The position numbers and the translations under genes are program-made. This document shows positions 3-62,407 of a stretch of 64,000 bases of DNA, piece by piece. Each line of letters opens with the position of its first letter. Position 1 is the first letter of the stretch. The notes under the pieces were generated by a model. That model searched no databases and was not told where the DNA came from. It was given only the letters and a program-made list of their open reading frames with translations. The stretch is from a virus: IMG/VR virus record IMGVR_UViG_3300027887_000463, positions 9,371 through 73,370 of that record; one strand, 5' to 3'.

Positions 3-293
3 AGTCCGGATTCGATAAGGGATAGACTACTTGTTTCGGCCAAAAGTTATAAGAACACTATAGAGTATCTACGATTCTTTATTGGAATCAAGGCAGCATT
101 ACTGGATAGAACTGACGCAAACAGTGTTAATGATTTTAATGATACTCTACGAAAACTAACAGAGTTAGAATCTCCTGGAGCGAAGAAAACCAAGATGAAG
201 ACTCCAGATGATGTTAGAAACATCATGAAAGATTTTGACCAGAGCTTTAAAAAAATAAAAGACAAGCTAAAAAACTTTAAGAGAGCTGACTGA
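3..293 (+). CDS. 3' end of a hypothetical protein, open at the left window edge
   Basis: The frame is open from the window edge to TGA at 291-293, and that stop overlaps the next ATG (TGATG). The tail reads ...RKLTELESPGAKKTKMKTPDDVRNIMKDFDQSFKKIKDKLKNFKRAD. Track ORF 47..265 (-) is its antisense shadow. Confidence 0.5.
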   Translation, partial: SPDSIRDRLLVSAKSYKNTIEYLRFFIGIKAALLDRTDANSVNDFNDTLRKLTELESPGAKKTKMKTPDDVRNIMKDFDQSFKKIKDKLKNFKRAD

Positions 294-3200
294 TGCCCGA
301 CGAGACCATAAATTATAAAGTTAATGTCGATACGAGTTCCTTAGCTGATCAACTACAACAAATAAAGAATCAGGTTGATCAGGCTATGGCGACATACACC
401 TTTTCAGCTACACTCCCCGACCCCACTCCAAGAGCTTATGCTTTTCCTTCTCAAGGTTTCACTGCCCAGATTGCTGGTATTGGGGCTGAAGCTGGAGGGC
501 TGGCATTAGATACTGGGCAAAACGTTGCTGGTGGAATGACGGGCGCGATGCAGCAAGCTCGAAGTTTCATAGATACAGCCCGCCTAGGATTTCAAAAGTT
601 CACCAACGATGTTCAGAACGTTATGTTAACAACGTCTGCTGGACTCGACTCAGTTATGCCTCGTCCGCAATTCTCTCCAGGAACAGAATATCGTCCAAAC
701 TTTTCACAAATGGGGCCCTTCCGATCAGGCTTTGAATCTCTGACTGGCTGGGGTTATAACCCAAACATGTCCATGACGCCAGGTCGTTATAGAGAATATG
801 CTCTGAACAATATGTCCGATCAGGTTGTAGAGCTTGGTAAGGGTGCTCTAGAAATGGGAGCTATGGCTACAGGTGTAGGCGGAGCAGTCGCCGGGGCTTT
901 AGGAGCAACGGGTTTGGCAGCAGCCGGATTAACGCTAGCCGTTCCAGCAGCAGCCGCTTATTTAGGGTCGGAGGCTTTTCTCGCTACTGGCGGTTATGAT
1001 GTTCGCCCAGCTTTACAGGCACGGGCTTTTGTACGAGATGCTTCATGGAGATTTCTATCCGGACGTTTCAATGATCAAGCAGCAAGTGAAATAGGAATGC
1101 AGGTAGCAACTGCAGCCCGTTCTGAGAATCTTGTCGGAATGCGAATGACTCAGGGCGAGGCGATGGGAATAGTACAACAAGCAATTGATACTGGTGGATT
1201 TGATACAGTGCGCACTGCCGATGAATTTAAACAACGGGCAAAGACGTATATCGAAAGTACTAAGTATGTTATGCAACAGCTGGGTACTACGATGAATGAA
1301 GCCGTTGGGTTTATGAAGGATTGGATGAATCAGGGGCTGGTTACCGACACCCAATCAGCGCGTACATTTAGTACTGGACAAGCAGCGATGGCATATCGTG
1401 CTGGATATACACCAAACGAACTTCATGCTTTTGGAATGCAATCGGCTGAGATGGTACGTGGCACTGGTATTATGATGGGAGCTGGATATTTATCTGGGCA
1501 AATGGCACTCTCCGGAGTTAAAGCCGGAATGACAGCAGGCGCCTTTACTCCCGAGATGATTAATCAAATGGGTGGGGCAGAAAATGCGGCAGCCACTATT
1601 AACAGAATGGGTTTTGCTTTTGGAATGAGTACTCCCGGATTAACATACTTTGCTGCACGAGATCTTATGGGCGAGGGCGCAGGAGCAATGGATCCCCGCT
1701 CAGCAATTGGTGCTGCAACAACTAGAATTCGTACACTTCAAGATTATATGAATTTCCGAGGTGGACAAGCTCGAATGTCTTCTCAAGTTGGTTCTGAAGT
1801 TCTCTTTGGAACACAGGTCGGTCAATATATGAATATGTTTAAAATGACCGGGCAGGAATTGAATGAAGATTCCTGGAGAACCTTTATGGAAGCTCAGGGA
1901 GTTGGTGGGTCGGAAGCTGATCTAATGTTCGGAAGAATCAGAGAGGCGCAACTTAATGTAGGTGCAACACGAATGCGGGATGCAATGGGAGAAGCTACAC
2001 GTCGAGCCAATCAGGGACGTCCAGATGTATTTAGTGTTGCTTTGGATAAGGTAGATCAGGTAGCGGCTGAAGTATTTCGTACCCGAGAAATTGGTCAGGC
2101 AGCCACAGATGCAGCAAACTGGATTTCGCGTACAGGAAGGGATATCTCTCGTGGCTGGCAGGCATTAACAGTTGTTGGTTATCAGGCACCTACGGAACTA
2201 GGGGAAGTAACAACTGCCCCAGCAGCAATCAGGGCTGTTATGGCCCAACGGGCAGGAGAGTTTGGTGTACGCCCCGGAATGACTCCAGAACAAATATTAG
2301 CCCTGCCACTAACTACTGGAACCACCCCAATGACACAGCAGATGGGAGCGGTAGCTGCTGGGATAAACCAAACGTTTCAGTCAGAGGAGACCGGTAAGTT
2401 CTTAGATACGAGAAGACAAGTAAATGCTGCAATCGAAGCTATGCAGGGTTCAAAATTAGCAACCGATCTTCGCACTTCTACAGCAGTTTTAGAGGGTAAA
2501 GATTTCAATGTAAATATGCAGACAGCGATACGTGAATGGGAAACATTACCCGAAGAACAAAAAAGAGTTATAGGAAATGTAGATAGATTTACTATCCTAC
2601 GAACTGGTTTAGATAAAACATCTGTACAAAGTGGTGCACGAGATATTATAAAAGGATGGGCAAGTTTTAGACCTGGTGTTGGAACTCAATCACGTTGGGA
2701 AGATATTCAAAAACGTGGAACGGCTTTGGAAGCTGCCATATCTAAAGACTATCAATATATAAAATCGAGTGCAGAGTCACACGATATGTGGGGTAATAAA
2801 ACCACTACCTATGAGTATGGCAATAGTCTTAAAGAGGGGTTAGAATTAGTAGAAGGAGTAGCTCCAGATCAATCCAGATTAATAGCGGGAGTTTCTGAGT
2901 ATAATAAATATATGCAACTGCCCGGTGGTAAAGAGGCTCTTCTTGGTTTATATGCAGATCGATATAAAGCAAAATTAGGTATAACATATCAAGAGGCACA
3001 ACAAAAGGCTGAGGCATTTATACCAGAATTAGCAAAAACAGCGGGACGAGCAGACGTTCAAACATTTATGGGTGAAGCATTGGTTTCTAAGATGCTTGGA
3101 GTACAAGACCCGGGTATGCGAGAGCAGCTTGGAAAGACATTGGGTATAAGCGGCCCTCTCACAGAAGGTAATATTATTGGAGCATTTTTTGCAGCCGAAG

Positions 3201-3505
3201 CAAAAGGTAAGTTACCAGCGCTATTGAAAGAAGTGGAAGCCCAAGTTCCATTATCAGGAGAAGTAGCAACCAAGTCTGTAACAACAAAACAACAATGGGA
3301 TATGATGGCTGCGGCAAAACAAGTAGATGTAGATTTGAAATCTGTTGCCAGAAGCATGAATATAGATCTAACAAGTTCTACACCACAAGATGTACAAAAT
3401 CAGGTAAGCAATAAACTTCTTATAACAGAATTACGAAAGCTTACAAATGTTATGGGTAATAGGAGTGGTCCGGCGCTTCCAGTATATATAACGGGCGGTC
3501 GATAA
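293..3505 (+). CDS. large tail/virion structural protein, tape-measure-like (tentative)
   Basis: 1070 aa and G/A/M-rich, with a hydrophobic Gly/Ala segment (MGAMATGVGGAVAGALGATGLAAAGLTLAVPAAAAYLG). It lies immediately upstream of baseplate-type genes, and its stop is coupled to the next start (TAATG at 3503-3507). Confidence 0.45.
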   Translation: MPDETINYKVNVDTSSLADQLQQIKNQVDQAMATYTFSATLPDPTPRAYAFPSQGFTAQIAGIGAEAGGLALDTGQNVAGGMTGAMQQARSFIDTARLGFQKFTNDVQNVMLTTSAGLDSVMPRPQFSPGTEYRPNFSQMGPFRSGFESLTGWGYNPNMSMTPGRYREYALNNMSDQVVELGKGALEMGAMATGVGGAVAGALGATGLAAAGLTLAVPAAAAYLGSEAFLATGGYDVRPALQARAFVRDASWRFLSGRFNDQAASEIGMQVATAARSENLVGMRMTQGEAMGIVQQAIDTGGFDTVRTADEFKQRAKTYIESTKYVMQQLGTTMNEAVGFMKDWMNQGLVTDTQSARTFSTGQAAMAYRAGYTPNELHAFGMQSAEMVRGTGIMMGAGYLSGQMALSGVKAGMTAGAFTPEMINQMGGAENAAATINRMGFAFGMSTPGLTYFAARDLMGEGAGAMDPRSAIGAATTRIRTLQDYMNFRGGQARMSSQVGSEVLFGTQVGQYMNMFKMTGQELNEDSWRTFMEAQGVGGSEADLMFGRIREAQLNVGATRMRDAMGEATRRANQGRPDVFSVALDKVDQVAAEVFRTREIGQAATDAANWISRTGRDISRGWQALTVVGYQAPTELGEVTTAPAAIRAVMAQRAGEFGVRPGMTPEQILALPLTTGTTPMTQQMGAVAAGINQTFQSEETGKFLDTRRQVNAAIEAMQGSKLATDLRTSTAVLEGKDFNVNMQTAIREWETLPEEQKRVIGNVDRFTILRTGLDKTSVQSGARDIIKGWASFRPGVGTQSRWEDIQKRGTALEAAISKDYQYIKSSAESHDMWGNKTTTYEYGNSLKEGLELVEGVAPDQSRLIAGVSEYNKYMQLPGGKEALLGLYADRYKAKLGITYQEAQQKAEAFIPELAKTAGRADVQTFMGEALVSKMLGVQDPGMREQLGKTLGISGPLTEGNIIGAFFAAEAKGKLPALLKEVEAQVPLSGEVATKSVTTKQQWDMMAAAKQVDVDLKSVARSMNIDLTSSTPQDVQNQVSNKLLITELRKLTNVMGNRSGPALPVYITGGR

Positions 3506-5454
3506 TGAGAACAAAAAATATAGTATGTAAAGTTTATTTAGAAGGCGTTAATGTCTCTTTCAATTCTATTCAAATTGCGGAGCAGGTAGGAGCACCTCCA
3601 AGAGCGGTTGTGAGTTTTCCCGCAGATAGTGCGGCCTTAACTCTTCTTCCTAAAACCGTTATTCATATATACTATGAAGATGATATTGGTATTGACCGGT
3701 TAATTTTTATGGGTGAGTTAGCGGGTAGCGGCATTTCATTTACTCCAGATAAACGAGCTATCAATTTAACTTTTACAGCCTTCTCTCAGAACTGGTATAC
3801 CAATGTTATCCTTCCTATGGACTTGAAGGTTCGGACTATGGCATCTAATGCTCTATATGTTCAAGTAAACCAGGCAGGGGATAAGGCTGAAGCCTCTACT
3901 CTAAAATTTACCGACTTAAAGGGTCTCGGATTTTTAGATGAAATACTATCGAAATTAGAGAATGGTGGAGACACATTGCCCACTATCATACAAAAACTAG
4001 TTAATACATTTGGTGAGGGTTTTGAGGGAGTCTACTGGCAAGCTGTGGCAAAAGCTTTTGGATTTAATAGTATGGTTGCGATTGACGGTGTAGGTAAGCC
4101 GGCTACATGGCCGATTCGAAAGATACAAGAACTGCTAATTACTGTAGCCGTTATGCAACATATCAAGGGATTAGCCCAGGGCGTTTCTGCGGGTACAGAT
4201 ATACATACATTATTTTCAACAATACTGGAATCTTGTGGCTTTTGTTATTCAGAAGTTGCGGCACCCACAGATTTAGGAAATACCCGTGCGCATATTCTAG
4301 TAAAACCAAAGACTCATTTCTTCCCGCCTATTAGACATAATGTTGTTATAGATGATGAGATAGTACAGTTGAGTTTTACTAGAGACTTTGATAGAGAGCC
4401 TACACGTTTAGTAGGACAAACAGTTCCATTCTTTCTACCCACCAACGATATAAATACAACTATTGTGAGTGTGGTAGTTCCCAATAATGTTAGATTGGCT
4501 CAAGCATTGGAGGGAGATAAACCACTTAATTCTACAGAAGTTTCGAACGATCAATTTAAAAATCTAAAAATGTTTGGCCTCTCAAGAGAAGAACAATGTC
4601 GTGGTGTTGTTTTAAGCGAACATCAAGATACTTCTTTTATTGAAAATTCTTACTTAATAGCTCTGATGAAAGATGCGGGGGAGAACAGTGATTATGATTC
4701 TCTCAGCGATGAGAAACGAAAAGAAGTCAACGGTAAATTTGGAGATTATGTTACCGGTGGCGGACAGATGAATGAGTCCGAGACTTACCACATGAATATC
4801 GCCACAACAATGTATTATGATAAACGACATCAGGCAAGAACCATACAAGTGAATTCGCCTTATAGTCCATATAGAATGGTAGATTTTCCTGGAGTTATTA
4901 TAAGTAAATACTTCCCCTCTAATGTTCCCGGTATAGTGGGTAATCTTGATTCCGTGTCCTCGGTTATTTCAGCTGATGGAGAGGCTTCGCAGACTCTAGT
5001 TTATTCTCATTGTAGATTTGTCGATGCCAATGTTTCGGGCACATCTGATTTCTATGGTTTCCTAGATGATGATATGGGTAATCCCGTTCCGTGGTATGCT
5101 GAATATGTTACCCAGGGAAACATTAACTCCTTCTATGAACAATTCACTGGACAAAAGAATTCGGCTGTTATTGCACAAGGGGGAAAGGCTGCGACAGCTG
5201 TTTATAGAGCAGTTCAAGATATAAAGGCTGAAGTTAATAAACCAGAGAACCAAAGAAATCGTGCAGAGTTTATACGAAGAAAAACTAGTCGTCCTTTAGT
5301 CACAAGACCTATGATTCAAAAATTATTTCCTAACACAAGTGTAAGAAAACTAGCTTCCGAAAAGAATAGCCCGGTCACAAGTATAACGCCGGCTCCTTAT
5401 CTAGAAGAACGTAGGAAAAGAGTATATGCTGTATTTAAAGTTAAACAGGGATAA
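3505..5454 (+). CDS. hypothetical protein (tail/baseplate module)
   Basis: 649-aa ORF whose start is coupled to the upstream stop. No motif recognised. Placement between the tape-measure-like gene and the baseplate genes suggests a hub or distal-tail protein. Confidence 0.5.
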   Translation: MRTKNIVCKVYLEGVNVSFNSIQIAEQVGAPPRAVVSFPADSAALTLLPKTVIHIYYEDDIGIDRLIFMGELAGSGISFTPDKRAINLTFTAFSQNWYTNVILPMDLKVRTMASNALYVQVNQAGDKAEASTLKFTDLKGLGFLDEILSKLENGGDTLPTIIQKLVNTFGEGFEGVYWQAVAKAFGFNSMVAIDGVGKPATWPIRKIQELLITVAVMQHIKGLAQGVSAGTDIHTLFSTILESCGFCYSEVAAPTDLGNTRAHILVKPKTHFFPPIRHNVVIDDEIVQLSFTRDFDREPTRLVGQTVPFFLPTNDINTTIVSVVVPNNVRLAQALEGDKPLNSTEVSNDQFKNLKMFGLSREEQCRGVVLSEHQDTSFIENSYLIALMKDAGENSDYDSLSDEKRKEVNGKFGDYVTGGGQMNESETYHMNIATTMYYDKRHQARTIQVNSPYSPYRMVDFPGVIISKYFPSNVPGIVGNLDSVSSVISADGEASQTLVYSHCRFVDANVSGTSDFYGFLDDDMGNPVPWYAEYVTQGNINSFYEQFTGQKNSAVIAQGGKAATAVYRAVQDIKAEVNKPENQRNRAEFIRRKTSRPLVTRPMIQKLFPNTSVRKLASEKNSPVTSITPAPYLEERRKRVYAVFKVKQG

Positions 5455-5457
5455 GAA

Positions 5458-6432
5458 ATGCCAAACACATCGATTAATGTATCAACCAACCCAATAGCTA
5501 CGGCATACTCGCCAGCATTGGCTGCTAAAGATTTACATAGGGTAGTAAATAATTCCGCCTTGATGGGATCCTATATACCAGACAATCTAGCTTTAGCAAA
5601 GCAGTATTTCCCCACAGTAGATTCGTTAGGGCTTGGAACTCTCTTGAACTTAGATAAGGGAACCATCTTTCCATTCAAAGATAACTCTCTGGCTATCACC
5701 GATATTGAGGTTCCAACTACTATCCTTGTGCTATCCAAAGGTTCTGGACAAATACAGCTACAAACAAATCGATTTATTCTTCAATCCATTTCTAAACCTA
5801 GCCAGGAAAGATTCCAGATCATAGAAACCTTTGGAGATCCGGCAGTGTATTTCTATGGGGATAGGACTAAGGTATATACCCTGCAGGGTTTACTGGTGGA
5901 TGCTGAAGATCCGATGCAAATAGATAACACCGGGACGGGTACTCCTGAACAACAAAGGGCAAAGGGAAAGTATTACTGGGCAACAGCCTTTCAAGATCTG
6001 TATGAGAATCATTTACGCGGCACAATTCTAACACAACGAGGCCAAATTGCCGCCATCTATGTAAACAATTGGTTTATAAAGGGGTATCCCGTTCAGTTAG
6101 TTATTAACAAAGAGTCGGCAAATACTCCCCAATTAGCCTCATTCCAAATGACTTGGGTTATAGAAAAAGAAACTCTTCTGTCAGCTACAAACGCTGAATG
6201 GTTATATCGAAATAATACCCTTAAAGGTGAGGCTGCCCAGGCACTGAATGGTTACTTAGATGCTCTTGTAAAGTATGATGGGGCTTATTCAGCGTGGCAA
6301 AAAGAAAGTAAAGGAGTTCCAGATGTTACTCCGCTTAGCCAGGAAAAAGATCGAGCCGCCGCAGCAGTTAAGGATGCTCTGAAAACTCTAGAAGCTGCAA
6401 TAGTAAAGGAAGCTTTGATAAATAAAAAGTAA
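5458..6432 (+). CDS. hypothetical protein (tail/baseplate module)
   Basis: 324-aa ORF starting 3 nt after the previous stop, with AGGGA upstream of the ATG. No motif recognised. Confidence 0.5.
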   Translation: MPNTSINVSTNPIATAYSPALAAKDLHRVVNNSALMGSYIPDNLALAKQYFPTVDSLGLGTLLNLDKGTIFPFKDNSLAITDIEVPTTILVLSKGSGQIQLQTNRFILQSISKPSQERFQIIETFGDPAVYFYGDRTKVYTLQGLLVDAEDPMQIDNTGTGTPEQQRAKGKYYWATAFQDLYENHLRGTILTQRGQIAAIYVNNWFIKGYPVQLVINKESANTPQLASFQMTWVIEKETLLSATNAEWLYRNNTLKGEAAQALNGYLDALVKYDGAYSAWQKESKGVPDVTPLSQEKDRAAAAVKDALKTLEAAIVKEALINKK

Positions 6433-6434
6433 TG

Positions 6435-6463
6435 TTGATTTTCGTGTATAATCTACGTATAAT
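6435..6463 (+). promoter_or_regulatory. sigma70-like promoter TTGATT-17 nt-TATAAT
   Basis: TTGATT at 6435-6440, a 17-nt spacer, then TATAAT at 6458-6463. The sigma-factor ATG (6469) lies 6 nt after the -10 element and no Shine-Dalgarno sequence lies between them. Confidence 0.5.
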
Positions 6464-6468
6464 AGACT

Positions 6469-7182
6469 ATGACTGACAAACAAGAAGAACTGAATCTGTG
6501 GAAGAAGTGGAGAAAAACGGGGGATCCTAGCTATATGAATTCCCTAATCAACTCATTAAACCCCTATCTACAGTCCCATGTAAATAAGTTTTCGGCGGTA
6601 CCAATCCCACGTACCGCTTTAGAGAGTCAAGCAAAGCTATTGGCCTTGAAAGCCCTACAGACATATGATCCAAAGAAGGGTACTCAAATCAATACGCATC
6701 TTGGACATGAACTAAAGCACTTAAATAGATACGTGATTGAGTATCAGAATGTCGGTAAGATACCAGAGAATCGTGGCATAGCTATATCTAAATTTCAAAA
6801 CATTAAGTCAAATTTGACGGAAGATCTCAGTCGAGAACCTACCGTTATAGAACTGGCAGATGCCTTGCAATGGTCCCCTGCCGAAGTCGAGCGGATGCAA
6901 AATGAACTAAGAAGTGATATACTTATCACTCAAGGAAAAGAAGAAGCCTTTTTTGATACCACATACAATCCTTCCGATCGAGACAGGGATATAGTTGAGT
7001 TTGTCTATTATCAGTCCTCCCCTGAAGAAAAGAAAGTCCTAGAATATACATTTGGGATGGGAGGAAATCCCAAATTATCGACTGGAGAAATCGCTATGCG
7101 ATTAAATAAAACTCCAGCCGAAATAGGTAGCATGCGTAAAAGATTAGCGTTAACAATAAAAGACGCGGCAAGTAATTACTAA
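6469..7182 (+). CDS. RNA polymerase sigma factor (sigma-70 family, group 3/4-like)
   Basis: Region-2-like block ESQAKLLALKALQTYDPKKGTQINTHLGHELKHLNRYV. Region-4-like HTH block SPEEKKVLEYTFGMGGNPKLSTGEIAMRLNKTPAEIGSMRKRLALTIKDA. At 237 aa the size fits a small sigma factor. Confidence 0.7.
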   Translation: MTDKQEELNLWKKWRKTGDPSYMNSLINSLNPYLQSHVNKFSAVPIPRTALESQAKLLALKALQTYDPKKGTQINTHLGHELKHLNRYVIEYQNVGKIPENRGIAISKFQNIKSNLTEDLSREPTVIELADALQWSPAEVERMQNELRSDILITQGKEEAFFDTTYNPSDRDRDIVEFVYYQSSPEEKKVLEYTFGMGGNPKLSTGEIAMRLNKTPAEIGSMRKRLALTIKDAASNY

Positions 7183-8993
7183 TGGATCCCTGTAGCATAA
7201 CAAAGAAAGCCCTCGATGCCAAAGCAGCATTGGGCATGGATTTAAGTAACCTTCAACAAAAATTTGATTTGTTAGCAAAGCAGGCTAATAAGCAAATGGA
7301 TTTGTTAGGGATACCTATTCTTAACCAACTCATGAGTAATTTCTCCCAGGTCGTAAACTCAACTCTGGCAGGAGTAGTGGGTCAAATGACAAAGCAGTTG
7401 GCTATGTCCATTAATGAGGGGCTCGATCTAGTGGCCGGCGTGCTTGCTACATTAACAATGATAGCTTCTGCAGGTACGCAAGTACAATTGCTGTTTATAT
7501 CGCAATTACGAAGAGAGCTTACGGTACGTATAATGATGTACAGATTGATGCTATATCATTATAGAAATATTCTTAGGGTATTGAAACTCTTACAGGCGCC
7601 ACGTTCTATATCATATAAAAAACTTTTAGCCGCCCTATCATATGTAAGAAAAGCTGAGGCGTTGTTTGAAAAAGCCGTAATTGCAGAGGCTACAAAGGAA
7701 GGGCTTCCGGCAAGATATAGTTATAAATCTATAAAAGGAGCGTTTCAGAATATAGATTCTGCAACTAAATTATTAACAGCTGATGCTAGTGTTGGTGGTA
7801 AAGAATTGGGATATACCCTTTCTGTTGCAATAACTGGAAGAAAGATTCCAAAGAAACGTTGGGAATATCTAGGACAAACTTTAGCAAAAGACTTATTATT
7901 CAAATCTATTGCCCAATCGTTGTCTTATATTGAATATTTGACGTGGAATTATATGCGAATAGCATCCTTAATCCCTATTCCCTTTGAAGCGGTAGATGCA
8001 ATATTTCAACCAAACAACTATACCCAACAATTTTTAACAGCAAACAATACCACCGCTCCTGGAGTTCAAACATTTAACCAGACAGATGAGGATGCTGCGT
8101 TAGAACGTTTTAGAAATGCTCTTATAAAAGAAGAAAATGAAACACTAGTAAAGACGGCTTCGGATGTTGTAGCATCCTTAGATTTATTGAAGGGGATAAT
8201 ACCGACTAATATAATTATCAATAGCTTAGTAGACACCATCATTAACTATCCAACATTTAATTCAGAATTAAAGGTGGCAACGGCAACACTCATTACATCT
8301 ATATTACCGCTTAAAGAGATAACAACAAATGTTCGTACAGGTATGGAGGATTCGTTAGCGAAGCAGGACAGCGAATTAGTATTAGCTGCCAAAGAAGGTA
8401 TCTGGACCACACAATTAAATTCAATTTTAATTCTTAAGGATGGTATTCTTCCTGCCTTAGAGGGGCAAGCCCGATTAGATCAGGATGCCTATAATTTAGA
8501 AACCTTTGTTAAATATCTAGAAGCAAACCAAGGAATATTTGTAATTGCGGATGCCGTACCAAAATTTATTGCTCAGAGCTTAGAAATTTTACGGGCACCG
8601 TTCAGTTCACGTAGTTTAGAAGAATCAGTTGTTCTGGTAACTTTTATCAACAGACAGTTGGAAAAAGCTGTGCAGGTGGATAGGGCGGTATTAGCAAAAA
8701 TGACTGGAATATCCGAGCCATTATCTCAGTTTACAGAACTCTTAAAAATGGCGTCGGAATTACCACCGCCGATGTCGACTGTAGCAAATGCTTTGAGAAC
8801 TGGACAGGCTCAGCAGGTATTAGGATTTATTACGGCACTTTCTCTTGGAACAATTGATACAATAAAAGATCTCTTCAACCCCAATTGCCCAGAGGTAAAA
8901 GTTAAAGAAGAAAAAGAGTTGTCGCTGTTTGACCAAAAACAAAAAGAAATTGATTCCTTTAATGGAATACCGGTAAGTAACTTATTTGGATAA
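7182..8993 (+). CDS. hypothetical protein (structural module, largely helical)
   Basis: 603-aa ORF with a TAATG overlap to the sigma gene. No motif recognised. Confidence 0.5.
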   Translation: MDPCSITKKALDAKAALGMDLSNLQQKFDLLAKQANKQMDLLGIPILNQLMSNFSQVVNSTLAGVVGQMTKQLAMSINEGLDLVAGVLATLTMIASAGTQVQLLFISQLRRELTVRIMMYRLMLYHYRNILRVLKLLQAPRSISYKKLLAALSYVRKAEALFEKAVIAEATKEGLPARYSYKSIKGAFQNIDSATKLLTADASVGGKELGYTLSVAITGRKIPKKRWEYLGQTLAKDLLFKSIAQSLSYIEYLTWNYMRIASLIPIPFEAVDAIFQPNNYTQQFLTANNTTAPGVQTFNQTDEDAALERFRNALIKEENETLVKTASDVVASLDLLKGIIPTNIIINSLVDTIINYPTFNSELKVATATLITSILPLKEITTNVRTGMEDSLAKQDSELVLAAKEGIWTTQLNSILILKDGILPALEGQARLDQDAYNLETFVKYLEANQGIFVIADAVPKFIAQSLEILRAPFSSRSLEESVVLVTFINRQLEKAVQVDRAVLAKMTGISEPLSQFTELLKMASELPPPMSTVANALRTGQAQQVLGFITALSLGTIDTIKDLFNPNCPEVKVKEEKELSLFDQKQKEIDSFNGIPVSNLFG

Positions 8994-9437
8994 ATGACTA
9001 TGAGATCATTACAAGTATATCAGCCTAGCTCAGAGACAGGCTTATTGGAGATGAAGTTTCCTTCATCAATCCCTTCTGAAGTCAGTGGGGTTCAAACTCT
9101 GTTACAGAACATTGCCTTATTCCTAAAGACCACCCCTGGATCTGATTCTTTTGATCCTGAACGTGGTACTATATTGGGCGATCAGGCTGCGATGGCTAAA
9201 TCGTTTACCAATATGGATCAGGTTCGGGTATCGGTATCCGATGCAGTTGACCGTACACAATTATACATACTTACACAGCAACAAAAGCAGCGGGAAGCTG
9301 GACAATATATAGGCCCGGATGCCACACTTACAAAGCTGGAAGTCAACAATATTTATCAAGGAGACGATCCTACTTCCATTTTTGTGGAAATTTTAGTATA
9401 TACAGAGGGTAACAAACAATACTTCCTAACGGTATAA
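8994..9437 (+). CDS. baseplate wedge protein, GpW/gp25-like
   Basis: 147 aa. The segment FLKTTPGSDSFDPERGTILGD resembles the GpW/gp25 signature (T.pGe...P.fGs). It lies directly upstream of a J-like gene, as in P2/T4-type baseplate operons. Confidence 0.5.
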   Translation: MTMRSLQVYQPSSETGLLEMKFPSSIPSEVSGVQTLLQNIALFLKTTPGSDSFDPERGTILGDQAAMAKSFTNMDQVRVSVSDAVDRTQLYILTQQQKQREAGQYIGPDATLTKLEVNNIYQGDDPTSIFVEILVYTEGNKQYFLTV

Positions 9438-9440
9438 AAC

Positions 9441-12404
9441 ATGACTATAAAAGAATATATAATTGATAGATTGCTCGAGTTTGACCCCACACTGGACACC
9501 AGTGATAACTCGGCATTAGTGGACTTACTAGTTAATCCTGGATCGGCTATGCTCGATCCTGTCATTGCACAACTAAACTTTCTATTAACTAATTTAGGTT
9601 TAGCTAGTCCAGAGACTATAGATGAATCTGAATTCGATTCGATTGCAGCTAACTTTCTAAAATCTAGAAAGCAAGGAGCTAAAGCTGTTGGGGTCGTAGA
9701 ACTTTTTTACAACAATCCTATCAATTTAGATATACCACAAGGAACTACCTTCACAAGTTCGACGGGAGTAGTGTTTGAAACTACACAAGCTATCCATATA
9801 CCTCTATCCAGCATGGCAGGTAACACATGGAATTTTCCTCGTTATTCGACTGGACCTATTCCGGTATCTGCTCAAGAGTTTGGAGTGATAGGTTCCATAC
9901 CTCCTAATGATATAAAGAGTACAAATCTCGTTCCCGCGCCTGCTCTTGTTACAAACCCATCAGCCTTTAGTGGAGGGGCAGATAAGGAAACCAATACAGA
10001 CTTTGCTGCACGCCTAATTGATGAGACTCTTACAGCAGCTCTAGGAAGCTCAGCGAGTATCAAAGCTAATTTAAGCCCTGCCTATCCTACAATCGAATCT
10101 GTAAAAACACGGGGAATGAATGATGTTGAGATGCTCAGGGACTTAGTATATTCGGGCATTCAAGTTTATAGTAACTATTATAACGTAGATTTCTACGGAA
10201 AAATTTCAGGGCTTAATGAACCACCATTCCCGCAAAGCATAGCCTATTGGAACGTGTTCTATGATGATCCAAATACATCAGGACTTATTCCAGATCTTCC
10301 TATCGTCACTGAGTTTACAGATCAATTTACCACCGGCCAATACGGGGGTATCTATGATCTTAACGATGCACTTAAAACAACCGTACAAACCACAATAGTT
10401 TTAGAAGATGACTTCCAGGCTCCTACGCTAGATCCGGCATGGATTCTATCGGATTCGGTTACTGGGCTGGGTATATTAAAAGATGCTAATGAATTTTTAC
10501 TAACGACCGTAAGCGGTACACAAATGCTAAGGCTGGGCAATAGATTATCACCAGATGACGCAGACGCCCAGGCATTGGTATCCATCTCTCAAGCGCAACT
10601 CTATAATATATTAAATATGTTAAAGAGCTTCAATCGTTTTGGTAAGTGGTTATGGAGAAGCAGTATATTTGATTTACAAATTAGACAGTTCCAAGCTTAT
10701 AATGACTTGATAGATTTTATTCAAGCAGATGATGATAAAGATAATAACATGTTAAGTCCGGAGGAACGTCAGGTTTGGAATATTATACGAAGTTTATCTG
10801 ATGCAGCACTTCTGGAAAAGACACATAATTTCTATCCGCTTGCTACAAGAACACTGGCTAAGCATGCTGGAGTAACTATAACAGGGAGATTTCAAACAGA
10901 CGACACTTCAACGGATGGACGTCTTTCATATGTTACCGTTCTTCGTGATCCGGACTCAATAGATCCAACTAATGGTTATGGATTTGCCTGGATGAAGAAT
11001 GATGCTAGTAATAGTATCTTTAATGTGTATCTTGTAGATAATAGTACTCTATCTAATGATCTGTTTGTAAGTACGACCACCATAGTATTACCACAAGGAG
11101 AAAACCAATTTAAAGCTGCGGCTAAGGTTGATATAAAAGCAGATAAACTCTACAGATTTAAACTGGTTATTGGCGATGATTATTCCATGTCTCTAAAGAT
11201 ATGGTTGAATGGCTCAGCCGAACCCGGTATTCCAACTCTCAGTACAGGAGCCCCGCAAAACGTTACAGCCGATGGATCTCATATCGGATTTGGTGTAATG
11301 GGAACACAAAACGGACAATGGTTCTATGATGATCTTCTGGTGGAGAACAATGCTGGGGTTCATACCGCGCTTCTGTATAGACTGAAAGCGGATCCGGCGG
11401 AGTTTCCAAATGGATCTCTAGCACGAGTTAATCATTATGGTTATGCTTACGACGGAACTACCTATGGCCTATCCGCCTTTATCAAACACTTCAATGGTTC
11501 TGTTTGGGAATGGGTTGAAATAGGTACCAATACAAGTACCAATGTTAGTGATCGAGAAGTAACCAGACTCGCATACGATTTTACTATGAATACAGATTAT
11601 CGGGATACTGATAACTTTATAGATGTATTAATCACTTCTACCGAAGCACAAACCACCGTAACTGAGGCTACATCGTACTATGTAAATTTAGAAACAGGTA
11701 TACCATCAGGAGTACATACAGGGGGATGTGCAGATATCTACATTAATGATCCAGGCTCAATCTTAGTGGCAGAGCAAACACTTAATAATGTGACTGGGAA
11801 TATTTTACTAGATACATCTAATGGCTTTATGGGACCTCTACATACTATCGTAGATGTTCAGACTGCGTTGATCGGGGATTCACTGACCGAGAATACAGAT
11901 TGGACATTAATAACGACGAATGCCGCCACCGCCTATTCGGTTCAAGAATATCCTTATCTAGCCTTTAGCCCTGATTTAGCTAACACAAAGGTAAAAATTA
12001 TTTATCGGTATTATGCATATGGGCAGGATGTACAGAATAGAGTATCCTCAGACCAATACAGATATTCAGGAGCAAGTAATTTGTCTAAGATAATGCCCCC
12101 ATGTGTGGTACGTATTAATAACCTTCGTTATAGAGGCAACCTCTCCGTAGGAGATGCGCAGCTAGCAATCGCAAATTATGTGAATACCCAACCAGAAAAG
12201 GTAACTCGTAACGAAATTATAAATGCATTATACACAGCAGGAGTTTCTTTTGTAGACCTGACTAATGTCGATATCGAAATCATACTACATAACTATAAAA
12301 GAGAAACACAAGATCCGGAACAGCTGGTTAGTGAATATATTAAACCAGATCTGTCCGCATTCTTTACCGACTCTTATGAAATGACCGGAGTTATAAAACT
12401 ATAA
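9441..12404 (+). CDS. baseplate J/gp6-like protein with extra domains
   Basis: 987 aa. The call rests on position after the W-like gene and a J-like N-terminus (IIDRLLEFDPTLDTSDNSALVDLLVNPGSAMLDPV). An internal lectin/LamG-like stretch is FKLVIGDDYSMSLKIWLNGS...GQWFYDDLLVEN. Confidence 0.4.
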   Translation: MTIKEYIIDRLLEFDPTLDTSDNSALVDLLVNPGSAMLDPVIAQLNFLLTNLGLASPETIDESEFDSIAANFLKSRKQGAKAVGVVELFYNNPINLDIPQGTTFTSSTGVVFETTQAIHIPLSSMAGNTWNFPRYSTGPIPVSAQEFGVIGSIPPNDIKSTNLVPAPALVTNPSAFSGGADKETNTDFAARLIDETLTAALGSSASIKANLSPAYPTIESVKTRGMNDVEMLRDLVYSGIQVYSNYYNVDFYGKISGLNEPPFPQSIAYWNVFYDDPNTSGLIPDLPIVTEFTDQFTTGQYGGIYDLNDALKTTVQTTIVLEDDFQAPTLDPAWILSDSVTGLGILKDANEFLLTTVSGTQMLRLGNRLSPDDADAQALVSISQAQLYNILNMLKSFNRFGKWLWRSSIFDLQIRQFQAYNDLIDFIQADDDKDNNMLSPEERQVWNIIRSLSDAALLEKTHNFYPLATRTLAKHAGVTITGRFQTDDTSTDGRLSYVTVLRDPDSIDPTNGYGFAWMKNDASNSIFNVYLVDNSTLSNDLFVSTTTIVLPQGENQFKAAAKVDIKADKLYRFKLVIGDDYSMSLKIWLNGSAEPGIPTLSTGAPQNVTADGSHIGFGVMGTQNGQWFYDDLLVENNAGVHTALLYRLKADPAEFPNGSLARVNHYGYAYDGTTYGLSAFIKHFNGSVWEWVEIGTNTSTNVSDREVTRLAYDFTMNTDYRDTDNFIDVLITSTEAQTTVTEATSYYVNLETGIPSGVHTGGCADIYINDPGSILVAEQTLNNVTGNILLDTSNGFMGPLHTIVDVQTALIGDSLTENTDWTLITTNAATAYSVQEYPYLAFSPDLANTKVKIIYRYYAYGQDVQNRVSSDQYRYSGASNLSKIMPPCVVRINNLRYRGNLSVGDAQLAIANYVNTQPEKVTRNEIINALYTAGVSFVDLTNVDIEIILHNYKRETQDPEQLVSEYIKPDLSAFFTDSYEMTGVIKL

Positions 12405-13831
12405 TGATTCCCCAGATAACACAGATATGGGATTACATAGGATCAGCGTGGAATAATTTCCAGGATAAAGAACTCGTAGAGAATTTCTGGGCTGCGCTAG
12501 CTAGTGGTAATCAATATGTTTTTAGCCATGTTTCAAATGTACAGTTCAGTCGTACAATAGACTATATGTATCCTACATTTGATTATGGTCCTGAGACTTT
12601 TATTATAGTATATTCTGGACTAACAACCGATTTAACGGTTAGTCCTATTGTAAACGGACAAGAGCAGGTATTAAATGGTGGTTTTGAAACAAATACTTCA
12701 GGCTGGATATCATATGGATCTGTCCCCTTTGTTCGATCAAATACATATGCACATACTGGAACCTGGTCAATTAAATTACCGGCTAATAATTCTTCAGCAG
12801 GTGCTAAATATAGTTTTGGAGGAAGCCAATTACCATCTTCCACGCTTACTGCGTGGTTTAAATTAGGATCTCTTCCGTCTACAGGTCAAGCCGGCTCGAT
12901 AGGACTTCTGGCGGTTGATGAAAACGATATGATAGTTGCGATGTCATTGGCAGCTGTGAATACAACTGCTTGGCAGAAGGTGACTATATATAGTCAGTTG
13001 CCAAACATTCGCGGATTAATTGTGTACAGTTTAACTGCCGTAGACGTTTATGTAGATGATGTATCGTTGCAAAGAACTGGATATTTTGAATATGCTCTTC
13101 CAGAATATACTTACTCTGTACCAACCATTACGTATAAATATACTTATAATGGGGTTGTATATACGGGAACATATACCGAGAATGTTGACTACCTCATTTC
13201 GTCGGAACTGAACTCGCTAATTTGGATAGGTACGATTATTCCCGATCGGCGATATTCAGATAAAAGAGTTTTAATAGGGACTGCCGACCACGTATATAGA
13301 ATCAATCCCGTACTAGGCGATGTGTGGTCTCGCCAATGTGGCTTCAAGATACAGACGATGTATCCTAGTTATGGTTCTTTCGGACAAGAAAAATACACAC
13401 ATCTGAAGCAATTGATTTGGTCATTAGATTTTTATCAGCAACAGGCTCCTAGTATATATACACTAAGAAATGCTTATGGAATTGCTAGGGGACTTCCTTT
13501 TGCGTATGAATCTGGAATTATGAGTTATACAACAGTAGGTGGGCTCTATAATGTAACTATAGGTGGAGATACTTTTATATTCCCCTCTGGAGTAAGGCCC
13601 GGCCCTATTGGTTATTACGACAAGTTTGAAGTACTAGCAAGTGGTTTAGAACTATATGATTATATTAGCAATCCGTCATTAATAAATACCTACACAAACC
13701 CGTATACGCGCAGATCTACTTTAATCTACGATCTTGATGCAAGTTTATCGGGAATATCCTTCTCACAGGATTTTCTGGACACTTATATGGCAAAAATTAT
13801 CCCAGAACAAATACAATATCTAACAATATAA
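12404..13831 (+). CDS. baseplate/tail-fibre protein with CBM4/9-like carbohydrate-binding motif
   Basis: 475 aa. VLNGGFETNTSGWISYGSVPFVRSNTYAHTGTWSIKL is the typical GGFE...W...G opening of CBM_4_9-type modules. ATGA overlap with the upstream gene. Confidence 0.45.
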   Translation: MIPQITQIWDYIGSAWNNFQDKELVENFWAALASGNQYVFSHVSNVQFSRTIDYMYPTFDYGPETFIIVYSGLTTDLTVSPIVNGQEQVLNGGFETNTSGWISYGSVPFVRSNTYAHTGTWSIKLPANNSSAGAKYSFGGSQLPSSTLTAWFKLGSLPSTGQAGSIGLLAVDENDMIVAMSLAAVNTTAWQKVTIYSQLPNIRGLIVYSLTAVDVYVDDVSLQRTGYFEYALPEYTYSVPTITYKYTYNGVVYTGTYTENVDYLISSELNSLIWIGTIIPDRRYSDKRVLIGTADHVYRINPVLGDVWSRQCGFKIQTMYPSYGSFGQEKYTHLKQLIWSLDFYQQQAPSIYTLRNAYGIARGLPFAYESGIMSYTTVGGLYNVTIGGDTFIFPSGVRPGPIGYYDKFEVLASGLELYDYISNPSLINTYTNPYTRRSTLIYDLDASLSGISFSQDFLDTYMAKIIPEQIQYLTI

Positions 13832-13841
13832 TGGACTAATC

Positions 13842-16331: not shown

Positions 16332-16340
16332 GGATAGAAC

Positions 16341-17564
16341 ATGTTAGATAATCTAACAATAGCACAACCTAATGTAGATAGAATAACAATTCTAAATTCA
16401 GGTATTGTTACTCTTATAGAGGATCTTTATAGAGAAGACCTTGTTCTGGGACGTAGTCGTATCAAAGCTACCTTCTCATCATTACAAGTGTCGGGACTTA
16501 TTGAGCGGCTATACTATGAGGTTTATGATGGGAATCTTGAAGCAGATAATGTTATCGAGTTTGATATGGTTCCCTCTGGAACAGAGTCTGTAGAAATTGC
16601 AGGAGTAACTTATACGTTTGTAGCATCGGGTCTATTAATTTCCCCCAATGATGTTCCGCTAAGAAACACGGCACTAGGTTGTGCCATTGCGTTGTATCGA
16701 GTTATAAACAAAAACGGAATCCCTGGAGCTGATTATGTCCTCTCAGGACAAAATGTACATCCATATGTATCTGGACTTCTTGCTGATAATCCTTTGTATC
16801 TTCAGATAAATACCTCAGGAATTATTGGAAATACCTACACGATATATAAAAATTATGATTCCACCGCACTGGGAGTTTATAGTGTTAGGTTTAGTAAAGG
16901 TAAAGACCAAGAGGTGAAAAATCCTTTATGGTTTGACTACGTGGCTTATTCTGGAACTAACGGAACCACTTATCTTTGTGATGTTCCTTCTTCAGATTAT
17001 GGTTTAACTTATTATGTTCGACTGTATTTTGCAAATTCTAGCGGACTTCAGGCACTTAATGTCTTACAAGAACCTTCTGATTATTGGCGATATACGCCGC
17101 CCTTCTTCGGCCGAACTTCTCTACCATATTATGCTGAAGTATCTGGATTAGTTGGTTCAGATCTTGTACAAGGAAAGATTCCTTCAATTCATGAGCTTGT
17201 AATAAAGTGGGATGATATGCATGTTTATTCCGGACTTAATGTAAAATTAGCATACCCGCTTACTACAGGAACCCCTACCCAATCAACGGATTCATATGAC
17301 CTGGTTGAATTAGGGCAAAAATTTTCGTATATTATATTTGTGTTCAAATCATCGGCAGGGTCTTCACCACAACGAAGCTGGCCGAGACCTACCGATGCGA
17401 ATGGCACCTGGTATTATGCCGGCAGAACAGATGATACCTCTGCTCGAGTATTTATGCCAATAGGATCCACATATTCAATTTGGGTAGGATTTGGAAACGC
17501 AGATACACTGAGAACTTCAGGCCTACCAATAGACATTGTACACCCCGACATTTACATAGAGTAA
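16341..17564 (+). CDS. hypothetical tail-fibre-associated protein
   Basis: 407-aa ORF with AAGGA upstream of the ATG. It lies immediately upstream of the giant fibre gene. Confidence 0.4.
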   Translation: MLDNLTIAQPNVDRITILNSGIVTLIEDLYREDLVLGRSRIKATFSSLQVSGLIERLYYEVYDGNLEADNVIEFDMVPSGTESVEIAGVTYTFVASGLLISPNDVPLRNTALGCAIALYRVINKNGIPGADYVLSGQNVHPYVSGLLADNPLYLQINTSGIIGNTYTIYKNYDSTALGVYSVRFSKGKDQEVKNPLWFDYVAYSGTNGTTYLCDVPSSDYGLTYYVRLYFANSSGLQALNVLQEPSDYWRYTPPFFGRTSLPYYAEVSGLVGSDLVQGKIPSIHELVIKWDDMHVYSGLNVKLAYPLTTGTPTQSTDSYDLVELGQKFSYIIFVFKSSAGSSPQRSWPRPTDANGTWYYAGRTDDTSARVFMPIGSTYSIWVGFGNADTLRTSGLPIDIVHPDIYIE

Positions 17565-17565
17565 T

Positions 17566-27291: not shown

Positions 27292-27820
27292 TAACTTTGA
27301 TTCGAGTACTAAGGAAGGTATCCGTATGACATCGGACGTAGAGTTCTTTAGAGATTCCGCGAATGTCCTCAGAACTCCCGATAATCTTACAATAGATCTG
27401 GATATCTATCAAGATGATGTTGTGTATCCATATGTATCATATAGTTTTGTTACAGGACTAACTACAATTACTATTAAAGTTAGAAGATTTGATGCCGCTG
27501 ATTCGGCAAATAACTATCATCACGTTCATTGGTGGATTAGTAGTTCTTCGTATGGAGCGCCTGCCACATTGCCAAACTATGGTTCAGGTCATACATTAGC
27601 ATTGACCTCGGGAACACGAACGTCGGGAACTGCACTTCCCATTACTTTAAATACAACGAATACCGGGCTACAAACACACATTACTACAAGCAACGAAATT
27701 ATTACTCTAACAATAACCGCTACCGATGGTGGGACTGGAAATCAAGCTACAGGTTATATTATGACAGAAGTACAGGGCGTATTATACTCGACTTTATTCT
27801 ATTATGACGACTCCGTATAA
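27272..27820 (+). CDS. fibre-associated paralog family protein, copy 1
   Basis: 182 aa. It shares EG(I/L)(Q/R)(M/I)TSDVE(F/L)(F/Y)R..ANV..TPD...I..DIYQDDVVYPY, H.HWW.S.S..G.P and a C-terminal EVQG..Y block with the ORFs at 28223 and 28729. It overlaps the fibre gene end by 20 nt. Confidence 0.6.
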   Translation: MSVELNNNFDSSTKEGIRMTSDVEFFRDSANVLRTPDNLTIDLDIYQDDVVYPYVSYSFVTGLTTITIKVRRFDAADSANNYHHVHWWISSSSYGAPATLPNYGSGHTLALTSGTRTSGTALPITLNTTNTGLQTHITTSNEIITLTITATDGGTGNQATGYIMTEVQGVLYSTLFYYDDSV

Positions 27821-29265: not shown

Positions 29266-29266
29266 T

Positions 29267-30187: not shown

Positions 30188-30419
30188 AGAAAGCGCCCTT
30201 ATCCCGTCCGGAATCGGCGCATTTACGGTGAGTATTGTAACGCAAAACGGGGTGGATCCGGCCGAAGTAACAGGACACATTGAAATTCTTGGCGGAGACG
30301 GTAATGTTATGCGCACTCTCCACCTGGGGCTAATACCCCATCTTACGGGTGGTCAAATCTCCACAATACAGACGTTTATGGACAATTTGCGGAGTAAGGC
30401 CATAAACGAGATACTTTAG
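30174..30419 (+). CDS. hypothetical protein
   Basis: 81-aa ORF with a strong SD (AGGAGGAAACGATG). It is GC-richer than its surroundings. Confidence 0.5.
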   Translation: MAFNKESALIPSGIGAFTVSIVTQNGVDPAEVTGHIEILGGDGNVMRTLHLGLIPHLTGGQISTIQTFMDNLRSKAINEIL

Positions 30420-62369: not shown

Positions 62370-62407
62370 AGAAATTCTCCTTTGTTACTTTCTTATACCA
62401 TGAAAGT

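Follow-up and report, generated by a model that had tools for sequence, protein, structure and literature searches.

The T7 and N4 RNA polymerases are single-subunit enzymes that work without a sigma factor, and T4 gp55 is a minimal sigma factor that consists of region 2 only and acts together with gp33 and a sliding clamp. Leaderless mRNAs with a −10 element 6–7 nt before the start codon are known from lambda cI transcribed from PRM and from many genes in Actinobacteria and Deinococcus. Reviews describe phage multisubunit polymerases as being without sigma homologues and sigma-encoding phages as being without polymerases (PMC7824862, PMC7598289, PMC13282480). The virion and non-virion enzymes of phiKZ- and AR9-like jumbo phages consist of 4–5 highly divergent polypeptides, and their specificity subunits gp68 and gp226 have no sequence similarity to sigma factors (PMC7824862, PMC7598289, PMC13282480). 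SPO1 gp28 and gp33/34, T4 gp55 and the sigma factors of polymerase-less jumbo phages (group 2; Iyer et al. 2021, PMC7824862) are phage-encoded members of the sigma-70 family that reprogram the host core. Here, we analyzed a 64,000-nt stretch of the IMG/VR virus record IMGVR_UViG_3300027887_000463 (referred to as the window; all positions are in window numbering), which encodes a sigma-70-family factor (6469..7182, + strand, 237 aa; domains sigma2, sigma3 and sigma4; from here on, sigma) as well as a fused beta-beta' bacterial-type RNA polymerase (46314–52361, + strand; a single chain of 2,015 aa), which is its presumed partner. The clade to which the window belongs has both parts of what the reviews treat as two groups, i.e., phages with a divergent sigma-less polymerase versus phages with a host-hijacking sigma (PMC7824862, PMC7598289, PMC13282480). 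In the reading that we favor overall, and to which we give somewhat better than even chances, a host-type leaderless promoter would make sigma, and sigma would join the phage polymerase and read promoters with the motif GGTATAAG.

The first-pass annotation of the locus had assigned sigma to the sigma-70 family on the basis of recognizable regions 2 and 4, and proposed HMM searches for Sigma70_r2 and Sigma70_r4 as a check. Sigma70_r2 (PF04542) was not reported for the window protein at E-values up to 10, and Sigma70_r4 (PF04545) gave a weak match (0.051) under the gathering score, while Sigma70_r3 (PF04539) exceeded its gathering score with 8.8e-8. Among 41 family members, Sigma70_r3 was detected in all (best 1.1e-10) and Sigma70_r4 in 17 at E ≤0.1 (best 2e-5). 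Hence, the part of the check on region 2 failed and that on region 4 was marginal, and by this check the sigma call survives only through profile and structure comparisons. sigma matched PHROG 351 ("RNA polymerase sigma factor") at 7e-10; the full-length NCBIfam models for FliA/WhiG, SigB/F/G and RpoH aligned from sigma residue 3–23 onward, and the RpoD model aligned by its C-terminal part. A profile of the family aligned with the RpoS, RpoD and SigA chains over regions 2 to 4.2 (E ~1e-10), and profile positions 15–100 aligned with RpoS residues 87–170, i.e., with region 2. An AlphaFold2 model of sigma (pLDDT 84) was all-helical, with a helical N-terminal domain (pLDDT ~90), a disordered linker at 152–168 and confident helices at 168–236. 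The best 50 listed Foldseek matches in the PDB library were sigma factors (SigD, SigB, SigA, RpoS and sigma-32), and the alignments to sigma factors spanned about 220–280 columns. Based on these comparisons and the model, the product of 6469..7182 is identified as a divergent three-domain sigma-70-family factor, most like group 3, with a sigma4 domain that is probably present but divergent. It differs from T4 gp55-type late sigma factors in having three domains, including a significant region 3 and a probable C-terminal helix-turn-helix domain. We identified 104 metagenomic homologues of sigma on contigs of up to 215 kb; an identical gene is present in SRR407549.

Sequence conservation within sigma bears on its promoter specificity. 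RpoS region 2.3 (TYATWWIRQ) aligned with THLGHELKH in the window protein and with THvGnELKH in the family; the aromatic residues for −10 melting (Y430, W433 and W434 in E. coli sigma-70 numbering) are absent from sigma, which has T76-H77 and H80-E81 at these sites, with H77 being invariant in the family. Group 3 sigma factors are likewise without the WW pair, and the loss of the aromatics is thus no bar to membership in the sigma-70 family. Because the region 2.3 residues differ and the recognition helix of region 4.2 is not conserved in the family, sigma is unlikely to have the promoter specificity of a housekeeping sigma factor. sigma is a new addition to a known family, and a leaderless promoter is a known device.

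As had also been noted in the first pass, the 237-aa open reading frame (ORF) lies between genes of the baseplate region. Directly 5' of it, as in most related loci, is the gene for a conserved 324-aa structural protein (5458..6432, + strand), a homologue of which was found within structural protein gp6 of the cultured Salmonella phage Arash. On its 3' side are a gene for a 603-aa protein (7182..8993, + strand), the ATG of which overlaps the sigma stop codon (TAATG), a gp25-like baseplate gene (8994–9437, + strand) and the gene for a Baseplate_J wedge subunit (9441–12404, + strand). Since the sigma stop codon and the next start codon overlap and no terminator follows sigma, the promoter described below would also feed the downstream baseplate genes; the 603-aa gene is probably cotranscribed with sigma and translationally coupled to it.

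The gap before sigma is 36 nt, while all other junctions in the + strand operon 293..30419 are ≤11 nt, in agreement with its earlier description as the only sizable gap of the operon. It has the structure TG-TTGATT-(17 nt)-TATAAT-AGACT-ATG: A −35 hexamer, TTGATT (6435..6440, + strand), begins 2 nt past the point where the preceding gene stops and is followed, after 17 nt, by a −10 hexamer, TATAAT (6458..6463, + strand), which lies 5 nt (AGACT) before the ATG. The pair of hexamers had been recognized correctly in the first pass, while the distance of 6 nt from the −10 to the ATG given there is to be corrected to 5 nt, with the A being the sixth base. The hexamers match the consensus at 10 of 12 positions. 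A second TATAAT inside the spacer (6447..6452, + strand) is without a −35 at a usable distance. We also considered a gene on the opposite strand of the gap and rejected it, as there is no ORF of ≥50 aa there. As judged from these features and from the comparisons below, the element is well supported as a sigma-70-type promoter, and with moderate confidence we suggest that it is probably read by the host polymerase.

Bacterial RNA polymerase starts at the sixth to eighth base after the −10 element. By this geometry, the predicted transcription start is A6469, which is the A of the ATG (6469..6471, + strand), the sixth base past the −10, and preceded by T. We found no Shine-Dalgarno (SD) sequence before sigma; its duplex with the anti-SD sequence was calculated at +0.5 kcal/mol versus a window median of −4.0, and isolated genes in the window carry AAGGAG 6–9 nt before the start. 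Using the criterion that a −10 match should have ≥5/6 identities to TATAAT, including the second-position A and the sixth-position T, sigma was the only called gene in the window with a match ending 5–7 nt before its start, and within 4–8 nt there was one other gene, with AATAAT ending 8 nt before the start. The first 45 nt of sigma are near unstructured (−1.3 kcal/mol versus a window median of −5.3; 5 of 54 genes were less structured). With regard to the start codon itself, the ATG at 6469 is the only one that keeps the conserved N terminus, because an in-frame TAG is located two codons upstream; residues K4, E7, W11 and W14 are conserved among homologues, a start at the next ATG would cost conserved residues, and alternative start codons were rejected on these grounds. 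sigma resembles leaderless genes such as lambda cI in having a −10 5–7 nt before an obligatory AUG, no SD sequence and an unstructured 5' end, but differs from them in sitting inside a long structural operon, so that it is also encoded on leadered polycistronic mRNA. The prediction of a leaderless mRNA that begins with the A of the AUG or directly beside it, which the first pass had drawn from the −10 geometry and the lack of an SD sequence, is well supported by these data and is strengthened by comparison of seven loci.

A nucleotide search of 5000–9000 against cultured phages gave no match, and relatives were therefore sought through proteins. We gathered 72 sigma loci from viral and metagenome collections, which represent 51 distinct upstream sequences. 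In most of these 51 sequences, the sigma ATG is located at −8 to +3 nt relative to the upstream stop codon, and from these distances the sigma start in most relatives is coupled translationally to the preceding structural gene. Seven of the 51 loci have a spacer of 30–43 nt, and each of the seven spacers is filled by a promoter; throughout, the presence of a gap equals the presence of a promoter. The arrangement is TTGATT-17-TATAAT-5-ATG in the window and in L014, TTGATT-17-TATAAT-6-ATG in L003, TTGACT-17-TATATT-6-ATG in L010, TTGATT-17-TATATT-7-ATG in L023, TTGACT-16-TATATT-6-ATG in L042 and TTGAAT-17-TATACT-13-ATG in L040. The start codon is ATG in all seven, and its A is the sixth to eighth base past the −10 in six. 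The spacer sequences are unrelated among the seven loci, while the hexamers and their distance to the ATG are kept. The −35 of L014 and L040 contains the TGA with which the preceding gene ends (T-TGA-TT and T-TGA-AT, respectively), and the promoter fills the spacer to the last base. A −10-like hexamer is also present within the spacer of L003, L014 and L040.

In a tree of sigma proteins, the promoter-bearing loci form two clades, one with the window, L014 and L003 and one with L010, L023, L042 and L040, and the promoter-less sisters L016 and L026 stand beside them. Based on this distribution, the arrangement either arose on two occasions or was maintained by selection with several losses, and the sigma-70-type promoter at sigma is lineage specific rather than family-wide. 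The gap would thus represent a comparative case of selection for a leaderless start, which was kept in two clades and in which the promoter exactly fills the spacer.

The promoter before sigma belongs to a class in the window. Exactly four sites in the 64 kb match the pattern TTGAYW-N17-TATMMT, compared with 0.45 expected, and none of 100 shuffled sequences reached four. Because this pattern was written after the sites had been seen, the independent evidence is location and orientation: All four matches are intergenic and co-oriented with the next gene, although non-coding DNA makes up only ~3% of the window. In addition to the sigma site, these are TTGATA-17-TATAAT (30423..30451, + strand) before the operon starting at 30481, which contains the portal gene (33687–35675), TTGATT-17-TATACT (37719..37747, − strand) before a glycosyltransferase gene (36387–37685), and TTGACT-17-TATCAT (46266..46294, + strand), which is located 19 nt before the polymerase ATG with an AAGGTG SD sequence in the short leader. 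These correspond to the similar elements that had been listed before the genes at 30481, 37685 and 46314. At the same place before the polymerase gene, relatives have TTGACT-17-TATTAT (L078) and a perfect TTGACA-17-TATAAT (L079). In the mostly coding part 1–20000, generic sigma-70-like promoter matches are depleted (35 versus 54.9 ± 8.2 in shuffles), and terminator-like sites are also fewer (8 versus 14.1 ± 4.0); this depletion suggests selection against spurious signals.

The polymerase gene, which had been called in the first pass, is genuine, with Pfam Rpb2_6 at 1e-59 plus several Rpb1 domains. Its beta' part is colinear with E. coli beta' 174–515, including the clamp helices and the DFDGD site. 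In bacteria, sigma2 docks on the clamp helices. Similar to the phiKZ- and AR9-like jumbo phages, the window would combine beta/beta' homologues with a dedicated specificity subunit, and virion packaging for early transcription is possible; it differs from them in that the polymerase is one chain, close to bacterial enzymes (Pfam 1e-59), and comes with a canonical sigma-70-family protein. Compared to SPO1 gp28 and the other factors that reprogram the host core, the family of the window also encodes its own bacterial-type beta/beta' subunits, and by analogy with them sigma is likely the driver of a phage-specific promoter class.

The sigma and polymerase genes occur together. Among cultured phages, the best polymerase matches come from precisely the ones that have sigma, i.e., Vibrio phages D69, D148 and D181 and Salmonella phage Arash, and both genes are on the same contig in IMGVR 3300032516_000011, 3300007510_001324 and 3300031772_000052. 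Co-occurrence could be assessed on some of the contigs only; all genomes and long contigs that were open to this check had both genes, down to 29% sigma identity. To collect polymerase loci, single-protein and three-sequence alignment searches gave few relatives, and the strict back-translated motif FDFDGDTM found only the closest relative, while the relaxed motif D-x-DGDTM gave at least 118 viral stretches. At least 81 of 118 sampled IMG/VR stretches with D-x-DGDTM encode a relative of the polymerase, and the polymerase-bearing clade is therefore large; many of these relatives align continuously over nearly the whole fused protein. Overall, the window phage belongs to a large clade of environmental myophages of roughly 150–270 kb that encode their own beta/beta' polymerase. 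In Arash, gp206 (OQ632216, 130093–134670; L201) comprises beta and the N-terminal part of beta' to ~residue 1396 in the numbering of the fused protein, and its gene comes after that for the portal within one operon. For Vibrio phages D181 and D148 (~144100–152030), the polymerase match is divided into three segments, among which a homing endonuclease is annotated. Searches of the literature available to us gave no described phage that combines a fused bacterial-type polymerase with sigma, which is absence of evidence only; we found no description in the literature of a bacterial-type phage polymerase combined with a canonical sigma-family factor and a conserved simple promoter.

The window contains a second promoter-like element, GGTATAAG, which resembles a −10 element without a −35. 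The site TGGTATAAG is present at 62392..62400 (− strand), 22 nt before the first gene of an operon that contains a gene for a homologue of translation initiation factor 3 (IF3), and at 38353..38361 (− strand), where it is intergenic and co-oriented with − strand genes; each of these two copies is flanked by a terminator on one side and by the next − strand gene on the other. A third copy of TGGTATAAG (CTTATACCA on the + strand) is at 46248..46256 (− strand), where it precedes the −35 of the polymerase promoter by 10 nt and faces away from the polymerase gene. With one mismatch allowed, TGGTATAAK was not enriched window-wide (44 versus 37 expected), and only the exact intergenic motif is informative.

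Among intergenic 7-mers in the first 50 kb of Arash, GGTATAA shows the strongest enrichment (9 of 31 gaps). Within the 60 kb examined, 13 of 14 sites with GGTATAA followed by G, A or T face the next gene, while the one at 29245 is inside a coding region. The sites are typically 25–40 nt before an ATG, often with GTA ~6 nt downstream, and precede at least 12 genes. Arash GGTATAAG sites are located at 11588 (+ strand) and at 20676, 32944, 34985, 36102, 37874, 42622, 44550, 46639 and 48780 (− strand) in stretch L203 and at 431, 614 and 892 (− strand) in stretch L201. The site at 11588–11602 of L203 forms GGTATAAG-AAAT-ATG in a 13-nt gap before gp9, a small gene directly upstream of gp10, the sigma gene of Arash. 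Of the 51 distinct sigma loci, only that of Arash carries a GGTATAAG-like element in the 400 nt that precede sigma. An internal promoter-like element near sigma with near-leaderless geometry thus appears to recur in three lineages, with a different type of promoter.

We also analyzed the region upstream of the polymerase gene in 30 non-redundant loci, which span 32–68% GC. Within 150 nt upstream of the polymerase ATG, CTTATACC was present with ≤1 mismatch in 15 of the 30 loci (nine exact), compared to an expectation of ~1.6 of 30, and in the other orientation in one locus. It is on the coding strand of the polymerase, 7–111 nt before the ATG, and often extended to CATAGTTCTTATACC (e.g., in L078, L079, L111, L199, L152 and L091). 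A divergent neighbor gene as the owner of the GGTATAAG/CTTATACC element was not supported, as the neighbors at the polymerase are not conserved beyond the 85% relative; we note that the ORF-based orientation of neighbors is noisy in GC-rich contigs, and that some upstream neighbors look co-directional. The element may act here as a back-to-back promoter, as an operator or in some other way. A G at the last position of the −10 is bad for housekeeping sigma factors. Because GGTATAAG is constant across phages with 29% identical sigma proteins and probably widely differing hosts, we consider it a better candidate for the own promoter of the phage sigma than the −35/−10 class.

In the 46091–46256 region (− strand), the TGGTATAAG site at 46256 is followed by a stretch of ~130–150 nt that has no convincing ORF (only seven codons after the first ATG) and ends in a hairpin and T-run at ~46091–46117, just before the SD sequence and ATG of the gene 45377–46060; it has no Rfam match and may be a small RNA or a leader/attenuator. 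Separately, AACCAATA at 30464–30471 (+ strand), 37693–37700 (− strand), 38336–38343 (− strand) and 38788–38795 (− strand) is located 7–9 nt before start codons without an SD sequence, two of which are GTG. It was not significantly enriched window-wide (seven copies versus 3.6 expected), with the presence of four of the seven copies in leaders being only suggestive, and could be an alternative ribosome-binding or regulator-binding element.

The block of genes for a 649-aa protein, the 324-aa protein, sigma, a variable protein, the gp25-like protein and Baseplate_J is kept in relatives down to ~40% sigma identity and is recognizable in Arash as gp6, gp10 (sigma), gp12 and gp13. Arash gp10, annotated as "RNA polymerase sigma factor RpoS," is 29% identical to the window sigma at 97% coverage. 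In Vibrio phages D69, D148 and D181, the sigma homologue is encoded on the + strand ~11 kb into the genome, with unannotated genes around it, and the only other part of the block that matched was a homologue of the 324-aa gene ~4 kb upstream of it. sigma is the best conserved gene of the block (84% versus 44–68% for its neighbors in L003, and 64% versus 23–43% in L005). As indicated by this synteny, the place of the sigma gene just upstream of the baseplate wedge genes is ancient and fixed. Arash resembles the window in that a homologous sigma is encoded at the same position upstream of the gp25-like and Baseplate_J homologues and in having a homologous polymerase (gp206 beta and gp216 beta') and the same GGTATAAG motif. 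It differs in that the polymerase is split, with gp206 comprising beta and the N-terminal part of beta' and being encoded behind the portal gene, and in that there is no sigma-70-type promoter before sigma, with GGTATAAG before gp9 instead.

Purified Arash virions were reported to contain gp10 (100% coverage, 467 spectra) as well as gp206 and gp216 (PMC10585845); this distant relative is the only phage of the group for which virion association was reported. The authors discussed the virion polymerase as possibly needed for early transcription; their paper does not examine a partnership of sigma and polymerase, does not contain the word "promoter" and does not mention the GGTATAAG motif (PMC10585845). 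In the window, sigma and the polymerase each have their own promoter, and sigma is inside the baseplate operon and coupled in most relatives. By gene order and analogy with Arash, the simplest reading is that sigma would be made with, and perhaps packaged with, the structural proteins.

Together, these observations can be arranged in the following scheme. Host polymerase with its primary sigma factor would bind 6435–6463 and start at A6469, and the 5'-terminal AUG would be translated without an SD sequence to give sigma and, by coupling, the baseplate proteins. The promoter would thus provide sigma and the baseplate genes with an expression route that is independent of read-through of the operon. 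The host enzyme would also read the like promoters before the polymerase gene, the head/portal operon and the glycosyltransferase gene. sigma and the phage polymerase would then form a holoenzyme that reads GGTATAAG, including the sites of the IF3-containing operon and other non-structural units. Late in infection, sigma would also be encoded on read-through mRNA of the operon, and part of the holoenzyme may be packaged into virions, by analogy with Arash. That sigma is a dedicated initiation subunit of the fused phage polymerase, in a holoenzyme that reads GGTATAAG, is in itself a tentative assignment, which we regard as possible at somewhat less than even chances. In being driven by a host-type promoter, the polymerase gene would resemble that of T7; in an N4-like course, the early genes could be left to an injected polymerase and the late ones to the host sigma-70 enzyme. 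By these analogies, two promoter classes are compatible with both a T7-like order (host first) and an N4-like order (injected first).

Several points weigh against this scheme. None of the 41 family members had a Sigma70_r2 match at E ≤0.1. Counted from the −10, the A of the ATG takes position 6, slightly short of the optimum of 7, and transcription could alternatively begin at G6471, with loss of the AUG. Most relatives lack the promoter, which is, therefore, not essential to sigma function. The scheme does not account for the orientation of the GGTATAAG element beside the polymerase gene. Proteins such as ribonucleotide reductase, ligases and helicases are part of the Arash virion proteome (PMC10585845), and carry-over of abundant non-structural proteins into this list is possible.

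The seven-locus comparison also bears on what the promoter is for. Transcripts from it run on into the baseplate genes and need not exist for the sake of sigma. It could be an internal operon promoter that serves these downstream genes, with its closeness to the AUG being a by-product and sigma being made mainly by re-initiation. In favor of this explanation, there is no terminator after sigma, the sigma stop codon overlaps the next start codon, and most relatives express sigma by coupling alone; that the promoter exactly fills the spacer, with the upstream stop codon forming part of the −35 in L014 and L040, is also in line with it. We nevertheless consider it quite unlikely: The start codon is always ATG and falls in the 6- to 8-nt start window in six of seven sequences, while a promoter for downstream genes only could lie anywhere; a 36-nt gap without an SD sequence is a poor context for re-initiation on polycistronic mRNA; and in Arash, too, an internal promoter-like element is located directly before gp9-sigma. 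Even less needs to be conceded to chance. A consensus scan does give many 9–10/12 matches in coding DNA, and the pattern was defined after the fact, but a 36-nt gap should contain only ~1e-4 matches, seven diverged loci have kept the hexamers and geometry although their spacers are unrelated, the four window matches all fall co-oriented in the 3% of non-coding DNA, and promoter-like matches are depleted in the coding DNA of 1–20000 (35 versus 54.9 ± 8.2). Therefore, a chance match in AT-rich intergenic DNA without promoter activity is extremely improbable.

If the element is a promoter, the question of which enzyme reads it divides two further explanations from the scheme of a host-read sigma gene and a GGTATAAG-reading phage holoenzyme. 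In one, the holoenzyme of the phage itself would read the sigma-70-type promoters, so that sigma is autoregulated and the promoters form a late or virion class, while GGTATAAG is read by something else. Indeed, the class precedes the genes for sigma and baseplate proteins, the portal operon and the polymerase gene, which are of the virion or late type, and its location before structural genes also fits a late class of a phage holoenzyme. The four window sites share non-canonical features beyond the housekeeping consensus (TTGAYT with T as the sixth base of the −35, a T-run, and CG or AG immediately 5' of the −10); a sigma factor with sigma2 and sigma4 is expected to use −35 and −10 elements ~17 nt apart; and Arash has a promoter-like element directly before gp9-sigma within the structural operon. 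That element, however, is GGTATAAG and not a −35/−10 pair. Moreover, GGTATAAG is conserved in the family, as expected for the target of a conserved sigma, whereas the −35/−10 type was seen in AT-rich lineages only and agrees with the universal bacterial consensus, to the last base in L079, and a phage sigma without the sigma-70 residues would have to read TATAAT and TTGACA. On balance, this explanation is rather unlikely.

In the other, sigma would be a classical phage factor that redirects the host core in the manner of SPO1 gp28 or of the sigma factors of polymerase-less jumbo phages, and its co-occurrence with the phage polymerase would be incidental. All characterized phage factors of the sigma-70 family work with the host core, the top structural matches of sigma are ordinary bacterial sigma factors, and reviews describe phage multisubunit polymerases as lacking sigma homologues (PMC7824862, PMC7598289, PMC13282480). 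Against these precedents, sigma and the polymerase are found together in every complete genome or long contig examined, down to 29% identity, and both were found in Arash virions (PMC10585845); the phage polymerase is of the bacterial type with the clamp helices kept; and the cognate-looking promoter is constant across phages of 32–68% GC and hence probably across very different hosts. We consider a redirected host core somewhat unlikely.

If the partnership of sigma with the phage polymerase is true, this would be the first viral multisubunit polymerase using a canonical sigma-70-family factor. Such a pair would represent a minimal, self-contained bacterial-type transcription system and would bear on the evolution of sigma-core recognition. 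The clade is abundant and almost unstudied, and its cultured relatives, Salmonella phage Arash and the Vibrio D69 group, permit direct tests.

The IF3 homologue, which had also been called in the first pass, is real (60223–60690, − strand), with both IF3 domains (IF3_N, 8e-19; IF3_C, 7e-21). Its gene is the fourth of a packed operon from 62369 to 60223, which lies behind the GGTATAAG-type site at 62392. IF3 disfavors leaderless mRNAs, and the leaderless sigma start would thus be linked to a phage that carries a factor disfavoring such mRNAs. The first-pass annotation had hinted at a phage-controlled transcription and translation program and had presented this link as an inference, and both stay inferences. 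A more specific version, in which rising phage IF3 from the GGTATAAG-driven operon would shut off translation of leaderless sigma mRNA in a negative feedback, is highly improbable. The first start candidate in the ORF of the IF3 homologue is TTG; bacterial infC uses an unusual AUU start for autoregulation.

Other features of the window lie outside the sigma locus. Scans for tRNA genes and Rfam families across the whole window found nothing. The gene 17566–27291 (+ strand) encodes a 3,241-aa product that ends in a Peptidase_S74 intramolecular chaperone domain and is a tail fiber; the gene contains several diverged internal repeats of 70–150 nt. A 294-aa reverse transcriptase (RVT_1, 4e-23; 40479–41363, − strand) adjoins ~1.3 kb (41364–42662) with only small ORFs and a 347-nt gap. 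A search for a template/variable repeat pair near the reverse transcriptase found only the internal repeats of the tail-fiber gene, and a diversity-generating retroelement is, therefore, not supported; the region is possibly a retron-like or other element. Auxiliary genes at 42663–45380, 53792–56017 and 58055–60223 (all − strand) encode a MoxR AAA+ ATPase with a VWA partner, a ClpB-like double AAA+ protein and a Pnkp-type kinase-phosphatase-RNA-ligase fusion, the last of which suggests RNA repair.

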